A stretch of DNA of 45,229 nucleotides. Source: a phage. A program made the position numbers and the translations under genes. The first letter of the stretch is position 1. Each line of letters begins with the position of its first letter. The notes below the pieces were generated by a model. That model did not search any database. It saw nothing but the letters and a program-made list of their open reading frames with translations, and was not told the origin of the DNA. The DNA lies in the sequence record OZ346221.1. One strand, given 5' to 3'. Below are positions 1,397-43,167 of this stretch, piece after piece.

Positions 1397-2917
1397 ATGA
1401 CCGTTAACGTTGACAACCAGCACCCACTTTATGCGCGCATCGCGCCCGAGTGGAAGATGATCCGCGATTGTGTGGCAGGGGAGCGCGCCGTGAAGGCGTG
1501 CGGCCCCTTGTACCTGCCTCATCCCGCCAGTGGCGACAATACTGACCCGAAAGCACGGGCGCGGTATAAGGCGTACAAGCAACGCGCTGTATTCCTGAAC
1601 GCCACCGCCCGCACACTTAACGCGCTGTTAGGAGTTGCCTTTGCTAAACCGGTAAGTCTCGACCTTTCCGGGGCGATGGCTGACCTGATTGACGACGTAG
1701 ACGGCAGCGGAATGCCGCTGCCGCAACTCCTGCGCGGTGCTATGTCTGAAGTTCTGCAATCTGGCCGCGCAGGCTTTATGGTTGACTACGACCGCCAGGC
1801 GCATTTTGACGAACTGGGTAACGTAGTGCCGCAGACAGCCGCCGAGATGGCGTCACACCGCCCGCTTATCCGCCTATATACGGCAGAACAGATCATCAAC
1901 TGGCGGCAGACCCACGGCGTCGATACGCTGATTGTTCTGAAGGAAACGGACGAAATCAGCACCGAAGACCCGGACGACTTCGCAAACCACGAAGTAACAA
2001 TCTGGACCGAGCTTCGCATGATTAACGGTGCGGCACACGCCCGCCGCTGGTTTTATAATGCGGACACGTCCGAGGTGCAAATGGACTTGCCGCGGGGGTT
2101 TACCCGTACCGATCTTGTGCCGCTGGTGGATGCAGCCGGTAAGGCGCTGACACAACTCCCGTTTTGCTGGTGTGGTGCGGTGGACAACAACGCAACGCCG
2201 GACGCCGCGCCGCTGGCTGATATTGCGTCCATCAACATTAAGCACTACAACGCCGAAGCGGACGTCGCCGAGATTGCGCACATAGTGGGCCAACCAACCC
2301 TGGTTGCGACGGGCTTGACTCAATCATGGGCGGACAAAAACCTGAAAGGCGGCATCGCGCTCGGTGCGACTAAGGGCGTTATCCTGGGTCAGAACATGGA
2401 CGCCAAACTGCTTCAGGCCGAAGAACGAAACCTATCGGTCGCACTGTGTGAACGCCGAGAGCTGCAAATGGCTAAACTTGGCGCGGCCCTGGTCGAGAAG
2501 GGGACCGCACCTAAGACGGCAACCGAAGCGGCCTACGATGCGCAGACTGATAACAGTATCCTGTCACTGATTGCCGGTAACGTCGAGAAGGCTTTCAACC
2601 GTGCGCTGCAAATCGTCAAGCTGTTCACGGGCGACACCGCAGATCAACGCGTAACGCTGAATAAGTTCTACACCGAAATCACGGTTGACGCACAGCTTAT
2701 GACCGCAATGATGGCGGGTGTGCAGACCGGTACGGTCCGGCTGGCGGACTTTATCAAGTGGATGATGGCCCAGGGCGTCATTGATGACTCGCAAACCGTC
2801 GAGCAGGTGGAAGACGAACTGCGAAATCAGAATCCATTGCCTCAAATGTCCCCTGATGCGGTAGAATCCACCGAAGAAGACCCGGACAAGGTAGCGGACA
2901 ATGGCGAAGACAATTAA
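1397..2917 (+). CDS. portal protein
   Basis: 506-aa ORF immediately after terL, acidic C-terminus, RBS AAGGAAA upstream; position and size typical of a portal. Confidence 0.7.
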   Translation: MTVNVDNQHPLYARIAPEWKMIRDCVAGERAVKACGPLYLPHPASGDNTDPKARARYKAYKQRAVFLNATARTLNALLGVAFAKPVSLDLSGAMADLIDDVDGSGMPLPQLLRGAMSEVLQSGRAGFMVDYDRQAHFDELGNVVPQTAAEMASHRPLIRLYTAEQIINWRQTHGVDTLIVLKETDEISTEDPDDFANHEVTIWTELRMINGAAHARRWFYNADTSEVQMDLPRGFTRTDLVPLVDAAGKALTQLPFCWCGAVDNNATPDAAPLADIASINIKHYNAEADVAEIAHIVGQPTLVATGLTQSWADKNLKGGIALGATKGVILGQNMDAKLLQAEERNLSVALCERRELQMAKLGAALVEKGTAPKTATEAAYDAQTDNSILSLIAGNVEKAFNRALQIVKLFTGDTADQRVTLNKFYTEITVDAQLMTAMMAGVQTGTVRLADFIKWMMAQGVIDDSQTVEQVEDELRNQNPLPQMSPDAVESTEEDPDKVADNGEDN

Positions 2918-4004
2918 TCAATATATGGCGGATCGAATGATTCGCCGTCACATCTTCACCCAGCGCCTGAGCAATGATCAGGCGCGACGGGTGCTGGCTA
3001 TGTGGGAGAAGTTCCGGCCCGCTTTACTGGGTAAGTTGACCGAGTTACTTGATGGCAAAAAGTCCATGAGCAACAAGGCACTTACCACACTGTTAACCCG
3101 AATCGACAAGACCGTCAAAACGGAACTGCGCGCCGAGTTTAAAGTGCTGGCGGAGAGCCTTCAGGAGTTCGCCGACACCGAGGCTGATTATCTCTCGGAC
3201 ACACTAACGGCAGCGATCCAGCCCGCGGTCGCCATACCCGCGGTGGAGGTGGTGAGTGTAGTGACTGGCGCGCAGATCGCAGCGACTGCAATGAGAAACC
3301 CGTTCCAGGGTAACACCATGATGCAGTGGCCTGATTCACTTTCCGAGTGGACCAGGACGCAGATCGGTAATCAGGTGCGCGCCGGATTCATCCAGGGCAA
3401 GCCAACGATGGAAATTATTGCGGATGTGAGGCGCGCGCTAGGCGGTCGTAGTGCGCAAGCAATCTCAAGCGTTGTTAAGTCCGCGGTCAACCACTACGCG
3501 GCTACCGCCCGCGAATTAATGGTAAAAGCTAATGACGATATTCTCGAAGGTCGCCAATGGTTGGCTACATTGGACACTCATACTTCCCCAATGTGCCAGC
3601 TACGCGATCGCCTGTTTTATCCTGTTGACGTCACTCCCGACACCAAAGGAAAGCGCGGCGGGAAAGTGGTGGCTGGATCACAATATGGCGCTGGTCCGGG
3701 CAAGCTACATTATTGCTGCCGTTCGACGGAGACGTGGAAAGTTAAGGGCATGGAAGATTGGCCCAGTGGTAAGCGTCCGGCACTGAAGGCTGAAGCGGGC
3801 AGATTGCTGAGTGAGCAGGTCGACGCGCAGACTGATTTCTTCTCATGGGTGCAGCGCCAGCCGCGCCATATTCTGGAGGAATTATATGGAGTGCAGCGCG
3901 CAGACCAGATTATGCGAGGCGTGAGAGTGCCGAAGATGTTCACCGATTCTGGCGAACTGATGACTATCGCACAGCTTAAAAACCGGGGGTTATGGCGTGA
4001 TTAA
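2901..4004 (+). CDS. MuF-like minor head (head morphogenesis) protein
   Basis: 367 aa, follows portal; contains WLATLDTHTSPMCQLRDRLFYPV, resembling the conserved MuF/SPP1 gp7 motif. Confidence 0.65.
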   Translation: MAKTINQYMADRMIRRHIFTQRLSNDQARRVLAMWEKFRPALLGKLTELLDGKKSMSNKALTTLLTRIDKTVKTELRAEFKVLAESLQEFADTEADYLSDTLTAAIQPAVAIPAVEVVSVVTGAQIAATAMRNPFQGNTMMQWPDSLSEWTRTQIGNQVRAGFIQGKPTMEIIADVRRALGGRSAQAISSVVKSAVNHYAATARELMVKANDDILEGRQWLATLDTHTSPMCQLRDRLFYPVDVTPDTKGKRGGKVVAGSQYGAGPGKLHYCCRSTETWKVKGMEDWPSGKRPALKAEAGRLLSEQVDAQTDFFSWVQRQPRHILEELYGVQRADQIMRGVRVPKMFTDSGELMTIAQLKNRGLWRD

Positions 4005-24556: not shown

Positions 24557-24777
24557 TTTAAGCTCTCAATAAGGGTGTATCGGGCGCTGCGCGCGGTGAA
24601 GGAGTTACACACGAAATGGCAACGCTGAGTCATGACAAGCCAGCCGGTAAGGTCCAGGCCCAGAAGGTATTCAGGCCGCGACACGCGACGCACACGATCG
24701 CGGCGTGGGTCGATGCAGAAGTCTTTTTGCATTTGGTCTACTACCGCGGGGTCGCGGTCAACGATTAAGATATTCAA
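24553..24777 (-). CDS. hypothetical small protein
   Basis: 74 aa ORF with ATGA overlap onto the HAD-like gene. Confidence 0.35.
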   Translation of the reverse strand: MNILIVDRDPAVVDQMQKDFCIDPRRDRVRRVSRPEYLLGLDLTGWLVMTQRCHFVCNSFTARSARYTLIESLK

Positions 24778-25243
24778 GGAGTTCTCCTTCGCTCATTATT
24801 TCAATTTGTGCGCTGCCGATTGGTGGCGCTTCGTCAAAGATTATCAATTGCTGGCACTTGTTATTGCTCGGACCGACTTCGCCGGTGACGGCGTGAATGA
24901 ATCTAATACGCCAGTCCAGAAGAATTATCAGGTTTGCAGTCTTCCGGGCCAACTTCGCCCACTTCGTCGACGTGTCCTGATTCAGCAGCATGACAGTACG
25001 TCGTCCGTGCGCTGCGCATTCCACCCACGGCAACGGATCGGAATACGGCGGATTGCACCACTTCCACCCTTTCAACTCTGCCCAGTCCACATCAAGCGCG
25101 CTGTGCTCTGCCGTGAAGTAACGCGGTAGCAGATGATTGGCGTCGCTCGCCGCCATATCGTAACGGAATCGGAACTTACGGCGCAGCGGTTTAAATAAAG
25201 CTGGCGGCGTGCGCCAGCTATCTTTTTGCTCACTCTTCTGCAT
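24758..25243 (-). CDS. phage-type DNA N6-adenine methyltransferase (Dam family)
   Basis: 161 aa with WRTPPALF near the N-terminus and catalytic NPPY (WCNPPYS), as in small phage Dam methyltransferases. Confidence 0.75.
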   Translation of the reverse strand: MQKSEQKDSWRTPPALFKPLRRKFRFRYDMAASDANHLLPRYFTAEHSALDVDWAELKGWKWCNPPYSDPLPWVECAAHGRRTVMLLNQDTSTKWAKLARKTANLIILLDWRIRFIHAVTGEVGPSNNKCQQLIIFDEAPPIGSAQIEIMSEGELLEYLNR

Positions 25244-26017: not shown

Positions 26018-26341
26018 TTACGAATAAAAATTCGGATCGCGTGCAACGTCTACCAGATACAGATTGCTGATTCGGTTGCCGTAGTGCCCTGGTGTGCGCT
26101 GGCGACACACTACGGCGAAGCCCGGGGGGATTGTATTGCCCGTCTCAATAATCCACGCCACGCGCGCGCCCGACAGCGTCTTACCATTGCATTCGATACG
26201 GGTGCCTCCATCGGCAGTATTGATGTTGCCAATTTTGCAGCCGGTGGACTTCAGACGAATGACGCCGGTTTTGCTGTCGTAGGAGAATAACTGGTTAGTC
26301 ATTGCAACCGAAAAATCGATGGCTTCGAATGTAGTGTTCAT
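26018..26341 (-). CDS. HNH_3/NUMOD4-like protein with degenerate catalytic motif
   Basis: 107 aa; NUMOD4-like N-terminus (FSYDSKTGVIRLKS) and HNH_3-like layout (ARVAWIIETG...IPPGF...GNRISNLYLV), but with CR in place of the expected DH catalytic pair. Confidence 0.4.
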   Translation of the reverse strand: MNTTFEAIDFSVAMTNQLFSYDSKTGVIRLKSTGCKIGNINTADGGTRIECNGKTLSGARVAWIIETGNTIPPGFAVVCRQRTPGHYGNRISNLYLVDVARDPNFYS

Positions 26342-26977
26342 TCTAAATTTTCCTCATTGACTGCTATCGCGAAGCCGCGCGGGGTGAGCGACCGGATTAA
26401 TTTTGTGCGGGCTGATTTGCCTCCGAGGCGACTATACTGCTTCGAGTACCCTTTTTCAACGAATACAGGCTTTTTCTCAGGCATACGGAAGCCGTTGCCG
26501 GTCCATAAGCAGGTCAGCTTCGGATATGAATCGCGGGCGTTGATGTATTCCGGGAAGAGCGGGTGTACGTCATCCTCCGGCAGATATCCCCCATACTCCC
26601 ACGGATCAAACGAGTGGTCCGGCTTACGCCACTGGGTGGAAAGCACACTGCGCGGATTCTCAATCATATATGGCACTTCGAAGAAGTCACCCAGGTAAGC
26701 TGCGATCTTCGCGGTGCGCACCGCTCACAGCTAGATCCGTGCACGGAGGGAATGCATAGATGATATCTGGCGTACCGAAATCGCCATTCATCGCGCGGTC
26801 CACGAAGTCCAGATCGATAAACTCATTGCGATACCGGATTCCGCGACCATAAATACGGTAGTCAAGGTACGACCCGTGATCGGCTTCGGAGTAGTTGAAG
26901 CAATAACACTTATGCCCCATCTCGGCAGCACGCTCAATCATCAAGCCGCTGCCGTCAAACAATGACCAGATTATCAT
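26338..26977 (-). pseudogene. cytosine-5 methyltransferase-like gene interrupted by a +1 frame change (covers ORFs 26687..26977 and 26338..26721)
   Basis: N-terminal ORF has motif I (SLFDGSG) and motif IV (FPPCTDLAVSGA); reading on in the +1 frame from its stop gives DFFEVPYMIENPRSVL (ENV-like motif VI) and a C-terminal RSLTPRGFAIAV; 640 nt is not a multiple of 3; GGG run (plus-strand CCC 26690-26692) abuts the stop. Confidence 0.45.
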
Positions 26978-28398
26978 TTGCGCGCCTTTTTAGCTTTCAT
27001 GTATTCCATTAAATCGTCCTGGATATCGCGCTTACTGTCGCGACGCTCGGCGACAAGTTCATCCAGTGTTCCGCGCGCCTGGATAATGTATACGAATACC
27101 GGTCTAGGGTGTCCGGCCTGCATCTGTCGAACCGGCCCGATACGCTCCACGATCTGCGAAAAGTGCTCAAAGTTCCAGGTATCGGAGAAGATTGCCAGGT
27201 GGTGTCCGCCGTCCTGCAAGTTAAGGCCGTGGCCTGCGGATGCCGGGTGTGCAAACATGATGGGGATCTCGCCCCTGTTCCACGCTTCCATATCCTTATT
27301 CCCCTGCTTACCCTTACCCAGCGCTACGCCGTGCGGAAATTTCTTCTTGAGACGCGCCAGATCATGCTTGTACTGATACGCAACGAGCAACGGCGCGCCG
27401 TTCAACTCCTCCACGATACTTTCCAGCGCGTCCAGTTTGGCGTCGTGAATCTTCACCCACTCGTCGGTCCGTTCGCCGTCTTCGTCCACCTTATACACAG
27501 CGCCGGAAGCAAGCTGAAGGCACTTAATTGTCTTCGATGCCGCGTTCGCCGCTTCCACTGTTCCGCTTTCCAGTTCGGCAAATAGCTCGCTTTCAAACTG
27601 GTCGTAAATCTTGCGGGCTTTCTTCGGCAGGTCCACAACAACCGGCGTATAGATTGGCTTGTCGCACCCGAAGTATTCAGCAGCGTCAACGGTTAGTGAT
27701 ACGTCAGACAGGCGTTGTTGTATTTCTTTCTCGGAGTTCTTTAGCGGAGCGTGCTGCATCGTGAAGCTGCCAGGCTTAACAGGCTTGCTAATGAACCAGC
27801 GATCGGTAAATGCCTTATAACTACTGCCGAGTCGTTCGCCACCGTCGACAAACCACGTCTGACCCCATAAGTCTTTCAAGCCGTTTGGCGCTGGTGTGCC
27901 GGTCAGATTAATCCAGCGCTTGACGTGTTTATGTGCAATCGCTGCCAGTGCGCGTGCGCGCTTACTGCCTTGCTTGCTACGATAGCCTTTCAGCTTAGTC
28001 GATTCATCGGCAACAACGACCGTAAAGGGCCACGCATCGCCGTAATAGTCAACCAGCCACTCAACCACATCGTAGTTAACACAAACCACGTTAGCGTCGC
28101 TCTCAAGCGCGGCAATACGGTCCTTCTCCGGTCCGGTGCCGTCTACGACCAGCAGGGATGAGAACCGCCATTTCTCCTGTTCCGGGGGCCATGTACCTGA
28201 CGCAACACGCAGCGGGGCCAGCACCAGTACGCGGTCCTCATGATGGGACAGGACGCCAGTCTGGAACATTTTATTCAGCGCCCACATTGTCGCGCCGGTT
28301 TTCCCGGATCCCATTGTCGCCCAGATATTACATCGCTTATGCTTGAGGATGAACGCGGTAATCAACTTCTGATATTCGCGACGTCGGAATCGTGCCAT
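26974..28398 (-). CDS. SNF2-family helicase-like protein
   Basis: 474 aa from internal ATG (MARFRRREYQ...); Walker A MGSGKTGAT, DEAH-like VVADEST, and LTGTPAPNGLKDLW typical of SNF2 helicases. Confidence 0.75.
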   Translation of the reverse strand: MARFRRREYQKLITAFILKHKRCNIWATMGSGKTGATMWALNKMFQTGVLSHHEDRVLVLAPLRVASGTWPPEQEKWRFSSLLVVDGTGPEKDRIAALESDANVVCVNYDVVEWLVDYYGDAWPFTVVVADESTKLKGYRSKQGSKRARALAAIAHKHVKRWINLTGTPAPNGLKDLWGQTWFVDGGERLGSSYKAFTDRWFISKPVKPGSFTMQHAPLKNSEKEIQQRLSDVSLTVDAAEYFGCDKPIYTPVVVDLPKKARKIYDQFESELFAELESGTVEAANAASKTIKCLQLASGAVYKVDEDGERTDEWVKIHDAKLDALESIVEELNGAPLLVAYQYKHDLARLKKKFPHGVALGKGKQGNKDMEAWNRGEIPIMFAHPASAGHGLNLQDGGHHLAIFSDTWNFEHFSQIVERIGPVRQMQAGHPRPVFVYIIQARGTLDELVAERRDSKRDIQDDLMEYMKAKKARK

Positions 28399-28402
28399 CT
28401 CT

Positions 28403-28621
28403 TTATTCCGCCTTTTTCCAGACTTCAGTTTCACTATCCAAGTTCCTCTTTGTGGCGTCGTAGTTGGTGGCGTGTCCGATGTGGACACCGGTAGCCCGGA
28501 AGCTCTTAAACTTCTGCCAGCACACCGTCAACGGCAGCGGGTAATTCAGGCCAGCAATAAACCACACGCGATCGCCCGGTTTACATTCGCCCAGCTTGGT
28601 GAGTCGGTAATGTTCTTTCAT
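28403..28621 (-). CDS. hypothetical protein
   Basis: 72 aa from internal ATG (MKEHYRL...) with GGGAGA RBS; a hairpin plus T-run lies just upstream. Confidence 0.4.
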   Translation of the reverse strand: MKEHYRLTKLGECKPGDRVWFIAGLNYPLPLTVCWQKFKSFRATGVHIGHATNYDATKRNLDSETEVWKKAE

Positions 28622-40492: not shown

Positions 40493-40798
40493 ATGAAAGC
40501 AATTATCTGGAATTACACCCTGGCCGTGGCAAAGCTGGAAGAAGCGAAAGCACTGAACGGCAACGTAGACCAGGCGCTGCAGATTGCGGTACTGGCGCAC
40601 CAATCAATTCGTGACGCGCTCTACCGCATGGACGCCAGCCTGGATGACCTGAAGCCGTTGCGTATGGCAATTCACGAATATGCCAAGGCATTTGCCCGTG
40701 AGCGCCTGGCGTATCGCTTCGGGATCGGTGAGACGGCAGTGACAAACGTCGCCCGGATTAAAGCCCAGCGCGAACTATTCGCCCAGCTTGCGAAATAA
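40493..40798 (+). CDS. hypothetical protein
   Basis: 101 aa with GAGGA RBS and the conserved promoter/leader element upstream. Confidence 0.5.
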   Translation: MKAIIWNYTLAVAKLEEAKALNGNVDQALQIAVLAHQSIRDALYRMDASLDDLKPLRMAIHEYAKAFARERLAYRFGIGETAVTNVARIKAQRELFAQLAK

Positions 40799-40807
40799 GG
40801 GGCCAAA

Positions 40808-41077
40808 ATGAGCCGTAGGCGCGCCAAACAGCTTTCGTGGCATATTCCCCTGCATTGCATACGAATATGGGCTGAGAATGCGGTTGAGGGTGAATCTGTA
40901 TTCTGGTGCTATCGCGACGACGTAAAGCCGTTGACGCAGACTCGCTACTTGCACCAGTTCGCAGCACAACACGATTTCAGGGTGCGGACCTCCTTGCAAC
41001 CAATGGGGATCCGTATTACATTACGCCGGAAGCCCGCCGTTGAGCGGGTAGGCAAACACTGGAGACTGAGCAAATGA
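40808..41077 (+). CDS. hypothetical protein
   Basis: 89 aa ORF closely following the previous gene. Confidence 0.45.
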   Translation: MSRRRAKQLSWHIPLHCIRIWAENAVEGESVFWCYRDDVKPLTQTRYLHQFAAQHDFRVRTSLQPMGIRITLRRKPAVERVGKHWRLSK

Positions 41078-41265
41078 AATTACTATTCCGCCGTAAAGCA
41101 GATGGCAAAATCCTGAGGCCAATACAGACCCTTGCGGCACACGTCCGCTTGCACCACGCCGCAAGCGATCGTGTCTGGTGGGCGAGTAAGGCAAAGCTGC
41201 CGGAGAAATACGATATTGTCACGCATGAGATAGTCAATCGCTTTGATGCCGTGACGGCAGCATGA
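41074..41265 (+). CDS. hypothetical protein
   Basis: 63 aa ORF with ATGA overlap onto the upstream gene. Confidence 0.4.
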   Translation: MKLLFRRKADGKILRPIQTLAAHVRLHHAASDRVWWASKAKLPEKYDIVTHEIVNRFDAVTAA

Positions 41266-41296
41266 ACGCCATTGACCCGCGCTCGGTGATTCTGAA

Positions 41297-41422
41297 ATGA
41301 GTGTGGCTATCCGTGATATGCTGATGCACAACCGCTTTGAGATAGGCGGTAGGGGCAATTCGATGCTATACGTCTTCGCGGTAGTCTGGCTAAATACCTA
41401 TGGGGCAGATTATGATTCATGA
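41297..41422 (+). CDS. small ORF (41 aa) in a chain of overlapping micro-ORFs
   Basis: Read by hand (MSVAIRDMLMHNRF...); joined to its neighbours by ATGA-type overlaps; too short for the ORF track. Confidence 0.2.
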   Translation: MSVAIRDMLMHNRFEIGGRGNSMLYVFAVVWLNTYGADYDS

Positions 41423-41513
41423 TGTGATTTATTGGTTTGGTTTGATCTGCGGGCTGTGCCTGCTTACCGCGGTGCTGTTTGGCATCCTGATGTTCGTCGT
41501 ATGGCCCGCATGA
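41412..41513 (+). CDS. 33-aa hydrophobic micropeptide candidate
   Basis: MIHDVIYWFGLICGLCLLTAVLFGILMFVVWPA read by hand, a single predicted TM helix; overlaps both neighbours. Confidence 0.25.
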   Translation: MIHDVIYWFGLICGLCLLTAVLFGILMFVVWPA

Positions 41514-41674
41514 CGTTCGAGGTATACAAGCGCCGTGGTATCACGGAGCACCCTACCAGGTTGCGCATGTGGTGGCTATGGTATCGGGATATGATAGGGG
41601 GCAGGATGTTCGAGGCCGTCCGATCGGAAGGGTGGGAATGGAAAGGCGTCGGTAAGTGGTCCATTTTCGATTAA
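41510..41674 (+). CDS. small hypothetical protein
   Basis: C-terminal part of the 41432..41674 ORF from ATG (MTFEVYKRRG...); ATGA overlap with the micropeptide ORF. Confidence 0.3.
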   Translation: MTFEVYKRRGITEHPTRLRMWWLWYRDMIGGRMFEAVRSEGWEWKGVGKWSIFD

Positions 41675-41690
41675 TTACGCAAGCGTGATA

Positions 41691-41726
41691 TAGTCCCAGT
41701 GAGCTAAAACTTACTGGGACTTTTTT
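41691..41726 (+). terminator. intrinsic terminator immediately upstream of the holin gene
   Basis: GTCCCAGT-(12-nt loop)-ACTGGGAC hairpin followed by TTTTTT, ending at the holin ATG (approximate coordinates). Confidence 0.55.
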
Positions 41727-42017
41727 ATGGATAAGCTAAACGAGTGGTTATTCGCCCTTGCGTGTCTTGCTGGTGGCTTCGTGGGCGCACGCATTCACGG
41801 CGAGGCAACGAAAGGGCCGTTGAACTTCGTTTTATATGTCGTAGTTGGCTTCCTGTGTGCCATATTTGGTGCGCCAGCTATTGCCGAGTGGTCTGGTTTG
41901 TCTGGCGAGCGCACTGTCGCCGGTTTGGGCTTCGTAACTGCCATCTTCTGGATGCCAATCGCCGACCGGATCCGGGAGACAATTGCGACGCTACACCTTC
42001 CGGGGGGCGCAAAATGA
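41727..42017 (+). CDS. holin candidate
   Basis: 96 aa with three predicted TM helices; first gene of the holin/antiholin/endolysin cluster. Confidence 0.55.
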   Translation: MDKLNEWLFALACLAGGFVGARIHGEATKGPLNFVLYVVVGFLCAIFGAPAIAEWSGLSGERTVAGLGFVTAIFWMPIADRIRETIATLHLPGGAK

Positions 42018-42259
42018 TTATCTCCGTCCTGTTGTTTGTTATCATAGGGGCTTCGTCCCTGTTTAACGTGTATGCGCCGTCCGTTCAGGATGGCTTCTTC
42101 GGTCGGGTGTTATATCTGCTAACAGCAATGACCTGTATTGTCGGGCTGTTGCAAACGGGAGACGTATCAGATACCACCTGGACCGCGTTAATCTGGCTGT
42201 TTGCATTGCGCACGCTGCGTAATGCTGTTTTGAATGGGGTAAAACATGCGATTCAGTGA
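42014..42259 (+). CDS. second holin/antiholin-like membrane protein
   Basis: 81 aa from internal ATG with GGGGG RBS and ATGA overlap; two to three predicted TM helices. Confidence 0.5.
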   Translation: MIISVLLFVIIGASSLFNVYAPSVQDGFFGRVLYLLTAMTCIVGLLQTGDVSDTTWTALIWLFALRTLRNAVLNGVKHAIQ

Positions 42260-42737
42260 TAACGGTCTACGATTTACGGCAGCATGGGAGGCTTTCAGCC
42301 CGGTGCCGTATTTCGCGACCAAGAAAGAGCAGGCCCGCGGCCTGTACACCTGGGGTTATGGGCACACTGGCACTACTCCGCCACGAAGCATTACCCGTGC
42401 GGAAGCACTGGAGCTACTCAAGCGCGATGTGGCATATGCCGAGAACTGGGTGAACAAGTACGCACACCCGAGCATCAATCAGGCGCAATTCGACGCGCTG
42501 GTGGACCTGGTAATCAATGCCGGTCCTGGTCCGATCATGCCGGACGACGTAGCCGGTGATTTCGACGATGCGATCCGCCGGGGCGACTGGGCAAAGGTGC
42601 GGGCTATACTGCCACAATTCCGCAAGCAAGGTGGGGAAGTGCTGAAGGGGTTAGTCCGTCGAGCAATCGGCAGGCAGGCGCTATTCGATGGTAAGCAGTG
42701 GGACGTTGCCGAGAAGATCGGACGTAACGCAGCATAA
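42246..42737 (+). CDS. endolysin (phage lysozyme-like)
   Basis: 163 aa; GLYTWGYGHTG and QAQFDALVDLVINAG resemble the T4/lambda-type lysozyme core; overlaps the preceding membrane-protein gene. Confidence 0.65.
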   Translation: MRFSDNGLRFTAAWEAFSPVPYFATKKEQARGLYTWGYGHTGTTPPRSITRAEALELLKRDVAYAENWVNKYAHPSINQAQFDALVDLVINAGPGPIMPDDVAGDFDDAIRRGDWAKVRAILPQFRKQGGEVLKGLVRRAIGRQALFDGKQWDVAEKIGRNAA

Positions 42738-42753
42738 TACGGGGTAACACAGT

Positions 42754-43167
42754 ATGTTAAAAAGTATTCTTGATCATAACGCCGACGCGCTCGCCGCGCT
42801 GGCTAAAACCGAAGACCCAGGCGCACGCGCTATTGTAGCGGATACGATCAGCCATGCGGGGGTATTCGACGCGAAGTTACCCAGCCCGCCGGAAAGTAAG
42901 CCGGTGACAAGTGCCACCGTAACTATCACACCGAAATCCGCCGCAGTTGGTGCAAAGGCCGCCGCTTCGGTTGCGGTACAGCCATCCGACGCAACTAACA
43001 AGGCAGGGAAGTGGGTGTCGTCGAATCCTGCCTGTGCGGAAATCGATCAGACTACCGGCAAAATCACACCCCAAACGGCAGGTAGCGCTCACATCTTTTG
43101 GGTGGCATCTGATGGAGGCGGGGCGATGGCGTCCGCCATCTTCACCGTAACGGGAGCAGAAGAATAA
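42754..43167 (+). CDS. Ig-like (Big_2-type) domain protein
   Basis: 137 aa; C-terminal beta-rich VTSATVTITPKSAAVG...GSAHIFWVASDGGGAMASAIFTVTG typical of bacterial Ig-like domains. Confidence 0.45.
   Translation: MLKSILDHNADALAALAKTEDPGARAIVADTISHAGVFDAKLPSPPESKPVTSATVTITPKSAAVGAKAAASVAVQPSDATNKAGKWVSSNPACAEIDQTTGKITPQTAGSAHIFWVASDGGGAMASAIFTVTGAEE

Follow-up and report, generated by a model that had tools for sequence, protein, structure and literature searches.

A Dcm-like cytosine methyltransferase gene, very probably a pseudogene made by a 56-nt deletion between direct repeats, in a Dhillonvirus-type phage genome

The window, the whole 45,229-nt stretch of phage DNA analysed here (sequence record OZ346221.1), is the genome of a Dhillonvirus-type Escherichia coli siphophage. 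The region under study matches 155 phage records at 90–96% identity, nearly all of them Escherichia phages of the genus Dhillonvirus, including jat, SO-1, HK578 and Gluttony; the best relative over 24 kb is only ~92.6% identical, and the window therefore represents a distinct Dhillonvirus-type genome, absent from the collection searched. A dcm-like gene is placed between genes encoding a SNF2-type DNA helicase and an HNH-like protein (Table 1), in an order common to jat, Pandora71 and Escherichia phage JohannBuxtorf_Bas84 (Bas84), with the helicase TGA overlapping the dcm ATG (ATGA, 26974–26977) and the dcm stop overlapping the ATG of the HNH-like gene (ATGA, 26338–26341), which has its own GAGG ~10 nt upstream. 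The HNH-like protein, assigned through PHROG 99, reaches only 0.082 against Pfam HNH_3, below threshold.

Table 1. Positions of the dcm-like remnants, the deletion junction and the neighbouring genes in the window.
Feature	Position	Strand	Size and basis
ORF-N, N-terminal remnant of the dcm-like gene	26687–26977	−	96 aa; ORF list and alignment with intact genes
ORF-C, C-terminal remnant of the dcm-like gene	26338–26721	−	127 aa from GTG; frame differs from ORF-N
Deletion junction, single kept copy of the 9-nt direct repeat GCGGTGCGC	26716–26724	−	Alignment
GGG-TGA	26687–26692	−	Native TAC CTG GGT GAC (Y-L-G-D); columns identical in intact jat, Pandora71 and SO-1
SNF2-type DNA helicase gene	26974–28488	−	Upstream of dcm; Pfam SNF2-rel_dom, 1.6e-10
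HNH-like gene	26018–26341	−	107 aa; downstream of dcm; PHROG 99 HNH endonuclease, 1.6e-16
Dam-type N6-adenine methyltransferase gene, intact	24758–25243	−	Pfam PF05869 Dam, E 1.3e-35

The dcm-like gene is divided between two open reading frames. ORF-N, which runs from MIIWSLFDGSG to AFPPCTDLAVSGAHREDRSLPG and the stop, carries the SLFDGSG motif and terminates in FPPCTDLAVSGAHREDRSLPG; its residues 1–87 are native, followed by nine out-of-frame residues (HREDRSLPG) and a premature TGA. ORF-C reads ...AKIAAYLGDFFEVPYMIENPRSVL...RSLTPRGFAIAVNEENLE up to its stop, or, written with a different stretch of its C-terminus, ...AKIAAYLGDFFEVPYMIENPRSVL...IRSLTPRGFAIAVNEENLE, and contains an ENP motif bearing the motif VI Glu, a conserved YPK..CLWTGNGF block and a C-terminal RSLTPRGFA. 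The longest form of ORF-C begins at GTG 26721 and its first ATG is at 26667, the start annotated in Bas84, which sits 20 nt past the premature stop; inspection of the sequence revealed no convincing Shine–Dalgarno sequence at either GTG 26721 or ATG 26667. The original prediction, made from the letters of the window, had described a methyltransferase-like gene split over two frames, with motif I and a PC motif in the upstream ORF, a GGG run (26690–26692) beside the stop codon (26687–26689), and Dam-type and HNH-like genes nearby, and in all of these particulars the ORF list, sequence and profile matches agree with it.

Both remnants are recognised by PHROG 757 (‘DNA methyltransferase’), ORF-N over profile positions 15–93 (E 5.3e-27) and ORF-C over positions 106–218 (E 8.9e-46), with the intact jat protein matching at E 6e-83. 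The family comprises 2,902 homologues, mostly 225–250 aa in length, in many enterobacterial phages. At a threshold as lax as E <= 10, Pfam matched neither of the fragments nor the intact jat protein, and NCBIfam gave no match for the fragments or intact close homologues; PF00145 is matched at E <= 0.01 by 24 of 116 family members (best E 1.3e-06), and a family HMM profile searched against PDB sequences gave 0 matches at E <= 1. With sequence profiles this weak, a comparison of folds was needed. The AlphaFold2 (AF2) model of P0001, an intact homologue (98% identical), has a pLDDT of 91.2 and a pTM of 0.89, and Foldseek places DNMT3A and DNMT3B as its top matches (E ~1e-7), the predicted three-dimensional fold being that of a C5-methyltransferase.

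Family members resemble canonical C5-methyltransferases (PF00145, including M.HhaI and E. coli Dcm) and the DNMT3 catalytic domain in their Rossmann-type fold and in carrying motifs I (FxGxG), IV (PC) and VI (ENx) in the usual order, but are ~100 residues shorter than M.HhaI and Dcm, without the large target-recognition domain, and the close homologues of the window gene are too divergent from PF00145 for detection by Pfam or NCBIfam. Motif I (SLFDGSG) and the catalytic FPPCTD (Cys79), both retained in ORF-N, are invariant in the 116-sequence family alignment. The gene is of C5-cytosine-methyltransferase type and broken, as had been proposed from its motifs. Its short length, earlier noted to leave no room for a typical target-recognition domain, is a property of the whole family, whose target-recognition region is small and DNMT3-like; the accompanying idea of an unusual minimal methyltransferase as a novelty gives way to membership of PHROG 757, a phage Dcm-like family already described, for one homologue of which m5C formation has been demonstrated by experiment.

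The nature of the break is apparent from alignment with intact relatives, where the gene comprises one ORF, of 696 nt and 231 aa (jat, SO-1) or 711 nt and 236 aa (Pandora71). Against jat, Pandora71 and SO-1, the 640-nt window gene shows only one indel, a 56-nt gap with GCGGTGCG(C) repeats at its edges. Two copies of GCGGTGCGC bound the segment in the intact genes, at gene nt 254 and 310 (56 nt apart), with a repeat identity of 9/9 in SO-1 and in the intact locus L011, and of 8 nt in Pandora71; the single copy kept in the window lies 25–35 nt upstream of the GGG run. The deletion takes out codons 85–103 (SGAPAFPRKRA[K/R]DPAFQLK), which follow immediately on the catalytic Pro-Pro-Cys loop, and puts the remainder of the gene out of frame; re-insertion of the 56 nt restores a 231-aa ORF. 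On sequence grounds, a 56-nt gap between short direct repeats is the classic signature of a slippage or microhomology deletion. The ancestral 696-nt gene lost 56 nt between its two GCGGTGCGC copies, presumably through replication slippage or microhomology-mediated recombination, and the resulting frame shift ends translation nine codons on, at a TGA belonging to ordinary coding sequence. The minus-strand interval 26338–26977 is very probably a phage Dcm-like minimal C5-cytosine methyltransferase pseudogene made by this 56-nt repeat-mediated deletion; a real inactivating mutation was one of three explanations offered by the original prediction, and the right one.

A search for the junction across 50,697 phage records, using a 51-nt blastn query at a strict E-value, identified it in a single record, that of Bas84 (PQ850611), whose annotation divides the gene into two CDS, Bas84_0037 and Bas84_0036, both called ‘DNA methyltransferase’; an 81-nt megablast junction query misses Bas84 owing to mismatches. 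A 24-nt junction pattern gave 0 matches in IMG/VR, JGI metagenome contigs and GTDB genomes, an 18-mer match in an unrelated 161-kb IMG/VR contig (L004) having disappeared with the 24-mer and being put down to chance. An exact-protein look-up of the 96-aa ORF of the window found no record, and a literature search on ‘JohannBuxtorf’ no match. All 14 of the Dhillonvirus-type IMG/VR loci checked have kept the segment.

The 56-nt deletion junction of Bas84 is identical to that of the window, and the two phages have both ORFs and the neighbouring genes in common, but they are only 93.8% identical over ~1.5 kb and differ in genetic background. Bas84 is 99.2% identical to the intact SO-1 over ~1.5 kb, rising to 99.6–99.7% within 300 nt of the junction in either direction, and the window is closer to the intact Pandora71, L011 and L021 than to Bas84. 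Since Bas84 is near-identical to an intact phage and distant from the window, the two deletions are best read as independent. The window and Bas84 differ at 30 of ~212 codons, 29 of these differences being synonymous and 1 non-synonymous, which indicates that the divergence built up under purifying selection on the protein, and therefore that each deletion is recent in its own lineage. Most likely, judging from these comparisons, the same 56 nt were lost twice, independently, in the lineages of the window and Bas84. For homologues that are naturally two separate proteins, a finding that the original prediction had named as counting against a broken gene, the only candidate is Bas84, split at the same junction; as its near-twin SO-1 is intact, Bas84 carries the same lesion and not a natural two-protein design.

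Other lesions of the same gene were identified in three metagenomic contigs with the Dhillonvirus gene order: a 10-nt frameshifting deletion (L035), a 108-nt in-frame deletion between CCGCGCA repeats that removes the ENP motif (L036), and a 213-nt in-frame deletion between CGCCCGCGA repeats (L037), bringing the natural disrupted alleles found to five with the window and Bas84. What looked like a larger insertion variant in phage P-GXEC-L2P5 (H3), whose record is 88.6 kb long, consists of three tandem duplications of 77 nt; faulty assembly is the most likely explanation, and the variant was left out of the evidence.

The deletion in the window might itself have been introduced by assembly or library preparation, or might belong to a minority variant of the sequenced stock. 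Such an origin gains some plausibility from a 14-nt palindrome (GCGGTGCGCACCGC) that holds the right-hand repeat, with which the left repeat can pair, looping out the segment. It is nevertheless very improbable, as assemblers do not collapse sequence over 9-nt repeats, the identical junction is present in an independently sequenced phage (Bas84), three further assemblies have other repeat-bounded deletions in the same gene, and the segment is predicted to fold, as single-stranded DNA, no more stably than shuffled sequences (z = −0.78). The same comparison, with a minimum free energy of −20.3 kcal/mol no different from the shuffles, led to the rejection of an unusually stable hairpin as a promoter of slippage. 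A repeat-rich contingency locus was likewise rejected, direct repeats of at least 8 nt numbering 2 per 696 nt in the gene against a genome mean of 5.3; with no such enrichment, the recurrence of deletion points to dispensability of the gene or an advantage of its loss, and not to a built-in hotspot.

The deletion is predicted to inactivate the encoded enzyme. In the 116-sequence alignment (P0001 numbering), the lost segment includes the invariant Lys98 and the nearly invariant Phe95, Pro103, Gln106 and Ala109, and in the P0001 AF2 model it covers most of helix 89–101 and the start of helix 105–123. ORF-N keeps the SAM-binding motif and catalytic Cys but is without the motif VI Glu and everything downstream, and motif VI therefore no longer shares a polypeptide with motifs I and IV, as it does in the intact relatives; the uninterrupted ORF of ~225–250 aa, with its conserved segment after the catalytic loop, is absent from the window copy. 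With an N-terminal piece deprived of the motif VI Glu, a C-terminal piece deprived of a good start and 19 residues lost, the enzyme would be inactive, and the gene is most likely a dead, null allele, to judge by these predicted losses. The window copy would accordingly be classed as a pseudogene of the known phage Dcm-like family (PHROG 757) and not as a working member. Both remnants are otherwise undecayed, an observation that fits a recent lesion and also fits continued selection on the fragments.

Split C5-methyltransferases are known, both natural and engineered, so weak complementation by the two fragments is conceivable. Separate expression of the two ORFs and their assembly into an active split enzyme would agree with remnants that contain no further stops and almost no amino-acid changes, with an ATG so soon after the premature stop that reinitiation can be imagined, and with the decision of the Bas84 annotators to call two methyltransferase CDS. 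Against this, 19 conserved residues are missing at the very place of the split, along with the greater part of a helix packed after the catalytic loop, neither candidate start is preceded by a convincing ribosome-binding site, two-piece versions are rare among >150 related phage records and 2,902 homologues, and a recent lesion explains the absence of decay equally well. An active split methyltransferase is consequently a very improbable outcome, and inactivation by the 56-nt deletion remains the preferred reading.

Two further explanations, both raised by the original prediction, locate the cause at the GGG run itself, and neither retains appreciable probability. A one-base indel or homopolymer sequencing error at this run, splitting a gene of ~213 aa, draws on the fact that removal of one G formally yields a single ORF, of 212 aa; this part of the earlier reasoning stands, but the product is a chimera with nine out-of-frame residues (HREDRSLPG) and without 27 native ones (PAFPRKRA[K/R]DPAFQLKAVRTAKIAAYLG), and no ~212-aa homologue with such a junction is present among the 120 best matches. 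Intact homologues have an identical GGG run in identical surroundings, the length of the run, which had been put forward for comparison in related genomes, being unchanged in jat, Pandora71 and SO-1, and the sole length difference from the intact genes is the 56-nt gap upstream, which is the actual lesion. In the intact relatives, TACCTGGGTGACTTC is likewise present and is translated in frame as YLGDF; GGG-TGA reads as Gly-stop because the upstream deletion has shifted the frame.

Programmed +1 ribosomal frameshifting at GGG-UGA-C, giving a fused functional methyltransferase, may be set aside with similar assurance: termination is weak where C comes after the stop, and +1 re-pairing is possible on GGG-U, but the gene occupies a single frame in the 14 IMG/VR loci and in jat, Pandora71 and SO-1, where these nucleotides simply encode protein, the conserved segment that includes the invariant Lys98 would be missing from the fused product as well, and the arrangement stems from a recent deletion and not from a conserved design. 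The prfB frameshift uses an upstream Shine–Dalgarno stimulator, whereas the GAAGATCGCAGCTTACCTGGGTGAC upstream of the site in the window has, on inspection, no AGGGGG-type Shine–Dalgarno-like element; the resemblance to prfB extends only to an in-frame UGA followed by C and possible +1 re-pairing, with no conserved split and no CUU-U slippery codon.

Loss of this gene has a parallel in phages that escape a retron defence. Retron Ec86 is native to BL21(DE3), and m5C is a target of type IV restriction systems. The dcm gene (711 bp) of the Drexlerviridae phage K42, a KarlJaspers strain, has been identified as the trigger of retron Ec86 (Eco1), its product placing m5C on msDNA as determined by LC-MS; the protein was modelled on and superposed with DNMT3A (6F57), and the substitutions C82A/E128A/K175A/K176A abolish its effect (10.1101/2023.08.16.553469). 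All four Ec86 escape phages analysed had lesions affecting dcm, namely a 2,262-bp deletion, a 1-bp frameshift and two upstream point mutations (10.1101/2023.08.16.553469).

K42 and KarlJaspers are 95.4% identical genome-wide and have the same 711-bp gene with the same residue numbering, annotated in KarlJaspers Bas06 (bas06_0055) as a ‘Dcm-like C5 cytosine methyltransferase’ and containing C82, E128, K175 and K176. The KarlJaspers protein aligns with the intact Dhillonvirus protein over its full length at 54% identity (E 3e-87), the two belonging to the same family and size class (231–236 aa) with a DNMT3-like fold. C82, E128 and K175 correspond to C79, E125 and K172 in jat numbering, all of which are present in the window remnants, distributed over the two ORFs; at the position of K176, jat has Arg and the window Leu. 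The copy in the window differs from that of K42 and KarlJaspers in being broken, with 56 nt deleted and two ORFs, and in its setting within a Dhillonvirus replication module (helicase, dcm, HNH-like) as opposed to a Drexlerviridae context, and its lesion is of the same kind as the dcm deletions and frameshifts of the K42 escapers.

The occurrence of the same deletion twice, together with other deletions in relatives, suggests that dcm is dispensable in Dhillonviruses and repeatedly lost, and possibly counter-selected in some hosts. A stronger proposal, that natural selection repeatedly favours dcm loss in Dhillonviruses as a way past defences sensing phage cytosine methylation (candidates being retron Ec86/Eco1 and type IV restriction such as McrBC), with the GCGGTGCGC-bounded deletion, arisen at least twice, as a preferred mutational route, is speculative and on balance unlikely, and neutral loss of a dispensable gene fits the data equally well as selected loss. 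Were selection responsible, natural dcm-null alleles would mark past encounters with m5C-sensing defences. The null reading carries a direct prediction, in that the window phage should make no m5C and should plate better than intact relatives on strains carrying Ec86, such as BL21(DE3).

For annotation, the two ORFs are to be treated as one disrupted dcm-like pseudogene; labels that imply a pair of methyltransferases, expression by frameshifting or a novel minimal enzyme do not apply. Within an already known phage Dcm family, this pseudogene is of an ordinary kind, mildly notable only for the identical deletion arising independently in another phage and for the repeated loss of the gene in the genus; its biological interest is modest, and lies in a family that triggers retron Ec86 and whose gene is disrupted in laboratory escapers.

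N6-adenine and C5-cytosine methyltransferases are abundant in Drexlerviridae, a related family of small siphoviruses, with no simple link to restriction resistance (BASEL paper, PMC8594841). The intact Dam-type gene of the window lies outside the lesion and provides context only.

Lesions of the dcm-like gene are not confined to a single form: three further Dhillonvirus-type contigs (L035, L036 and L037) carry differing deletions in it, each flanked by a direct repeat of 5–9 nt. In Sodalis phage SO-1, where the gene is intact, the right-hand copy of the dcm deletion repeat is included in a perfect 14-nt palindrome, GCGGTGCGCACCGC, so that the left repeat can pair with the palindrome, base-pairing that would loop out the 56-nt segment; significant stability of the overall fold around this segment was not found. 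Three tandem duplications of 77 nt are present within the dcm-like gene of Escherichia phage P-GXEC-L2P5, whose ‘complete genome’ of 88.6 kb is approximately twice the usual Dhillonvirus size; the duplications look like an assembly artefact of k-mer-sized overlaps.

Features of the dcm-like gene and its surroundings
Feature	Record	Position	Strand	Detail
HNH-like protein	window	26018-26341	minus	107 aa; partial PHROG 99 match
Helicase/dcm overlap	window	26974-26977	minus	ATGA stop/start
dcm/HNH-like overlap	window	26338-26341	minus	ATGA stop/start
Region of the deletion repeat and palindrome	L008 (SO-1)	1753-1823		~ window 26703-26724
dcm-like deletion	L035, ENA ERZ28637042 scaffold_412			10 nt, frameshift
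dcm-like deletion	L036, Logan SRR14521351_242			108 nt, in frame
dcm-like deletion	L037, Logan ERR4158311_1160			213 nt, in frame
Region of the dcm-like gene with duplications	L039, PQ843332.1 (P-GXEC-L2P5)	40553-42938
HNH-like-to-Dam stretch	L002 (Bas84)	2665-3123
HNH-like-to-Dam stretch	L001 (jat)	2724-3431

The helicase, dcm-like and HNH-like genes are chained via ATGA overlaps, an arrangement that points to coupled translation. By ending translation early, the stop at 26687 cuts the HNH-like gene off from upstream translation, although a GAGG of its own lies ∼10 nt upstream of this gene. Its product covers only positions 108–198 of the 383 in the PHROG 99 profile, falls below threshold against Pfam HNH_3 (E 0.082), and is kept at 105–107 aa across the Dhillonvirus loci seen; it looks like a short HNH relative, possibly with catalytic degeneracy.

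Relatives disagree in their annotation of the stretch from the HNH-like gene to Dam, where a 152-aa open reading frame that jat and Pandora71 list as a ‘hypothetical protein’ is named ‘DNA ligase’ in Bas84, a doubtful name given the protein's small size.
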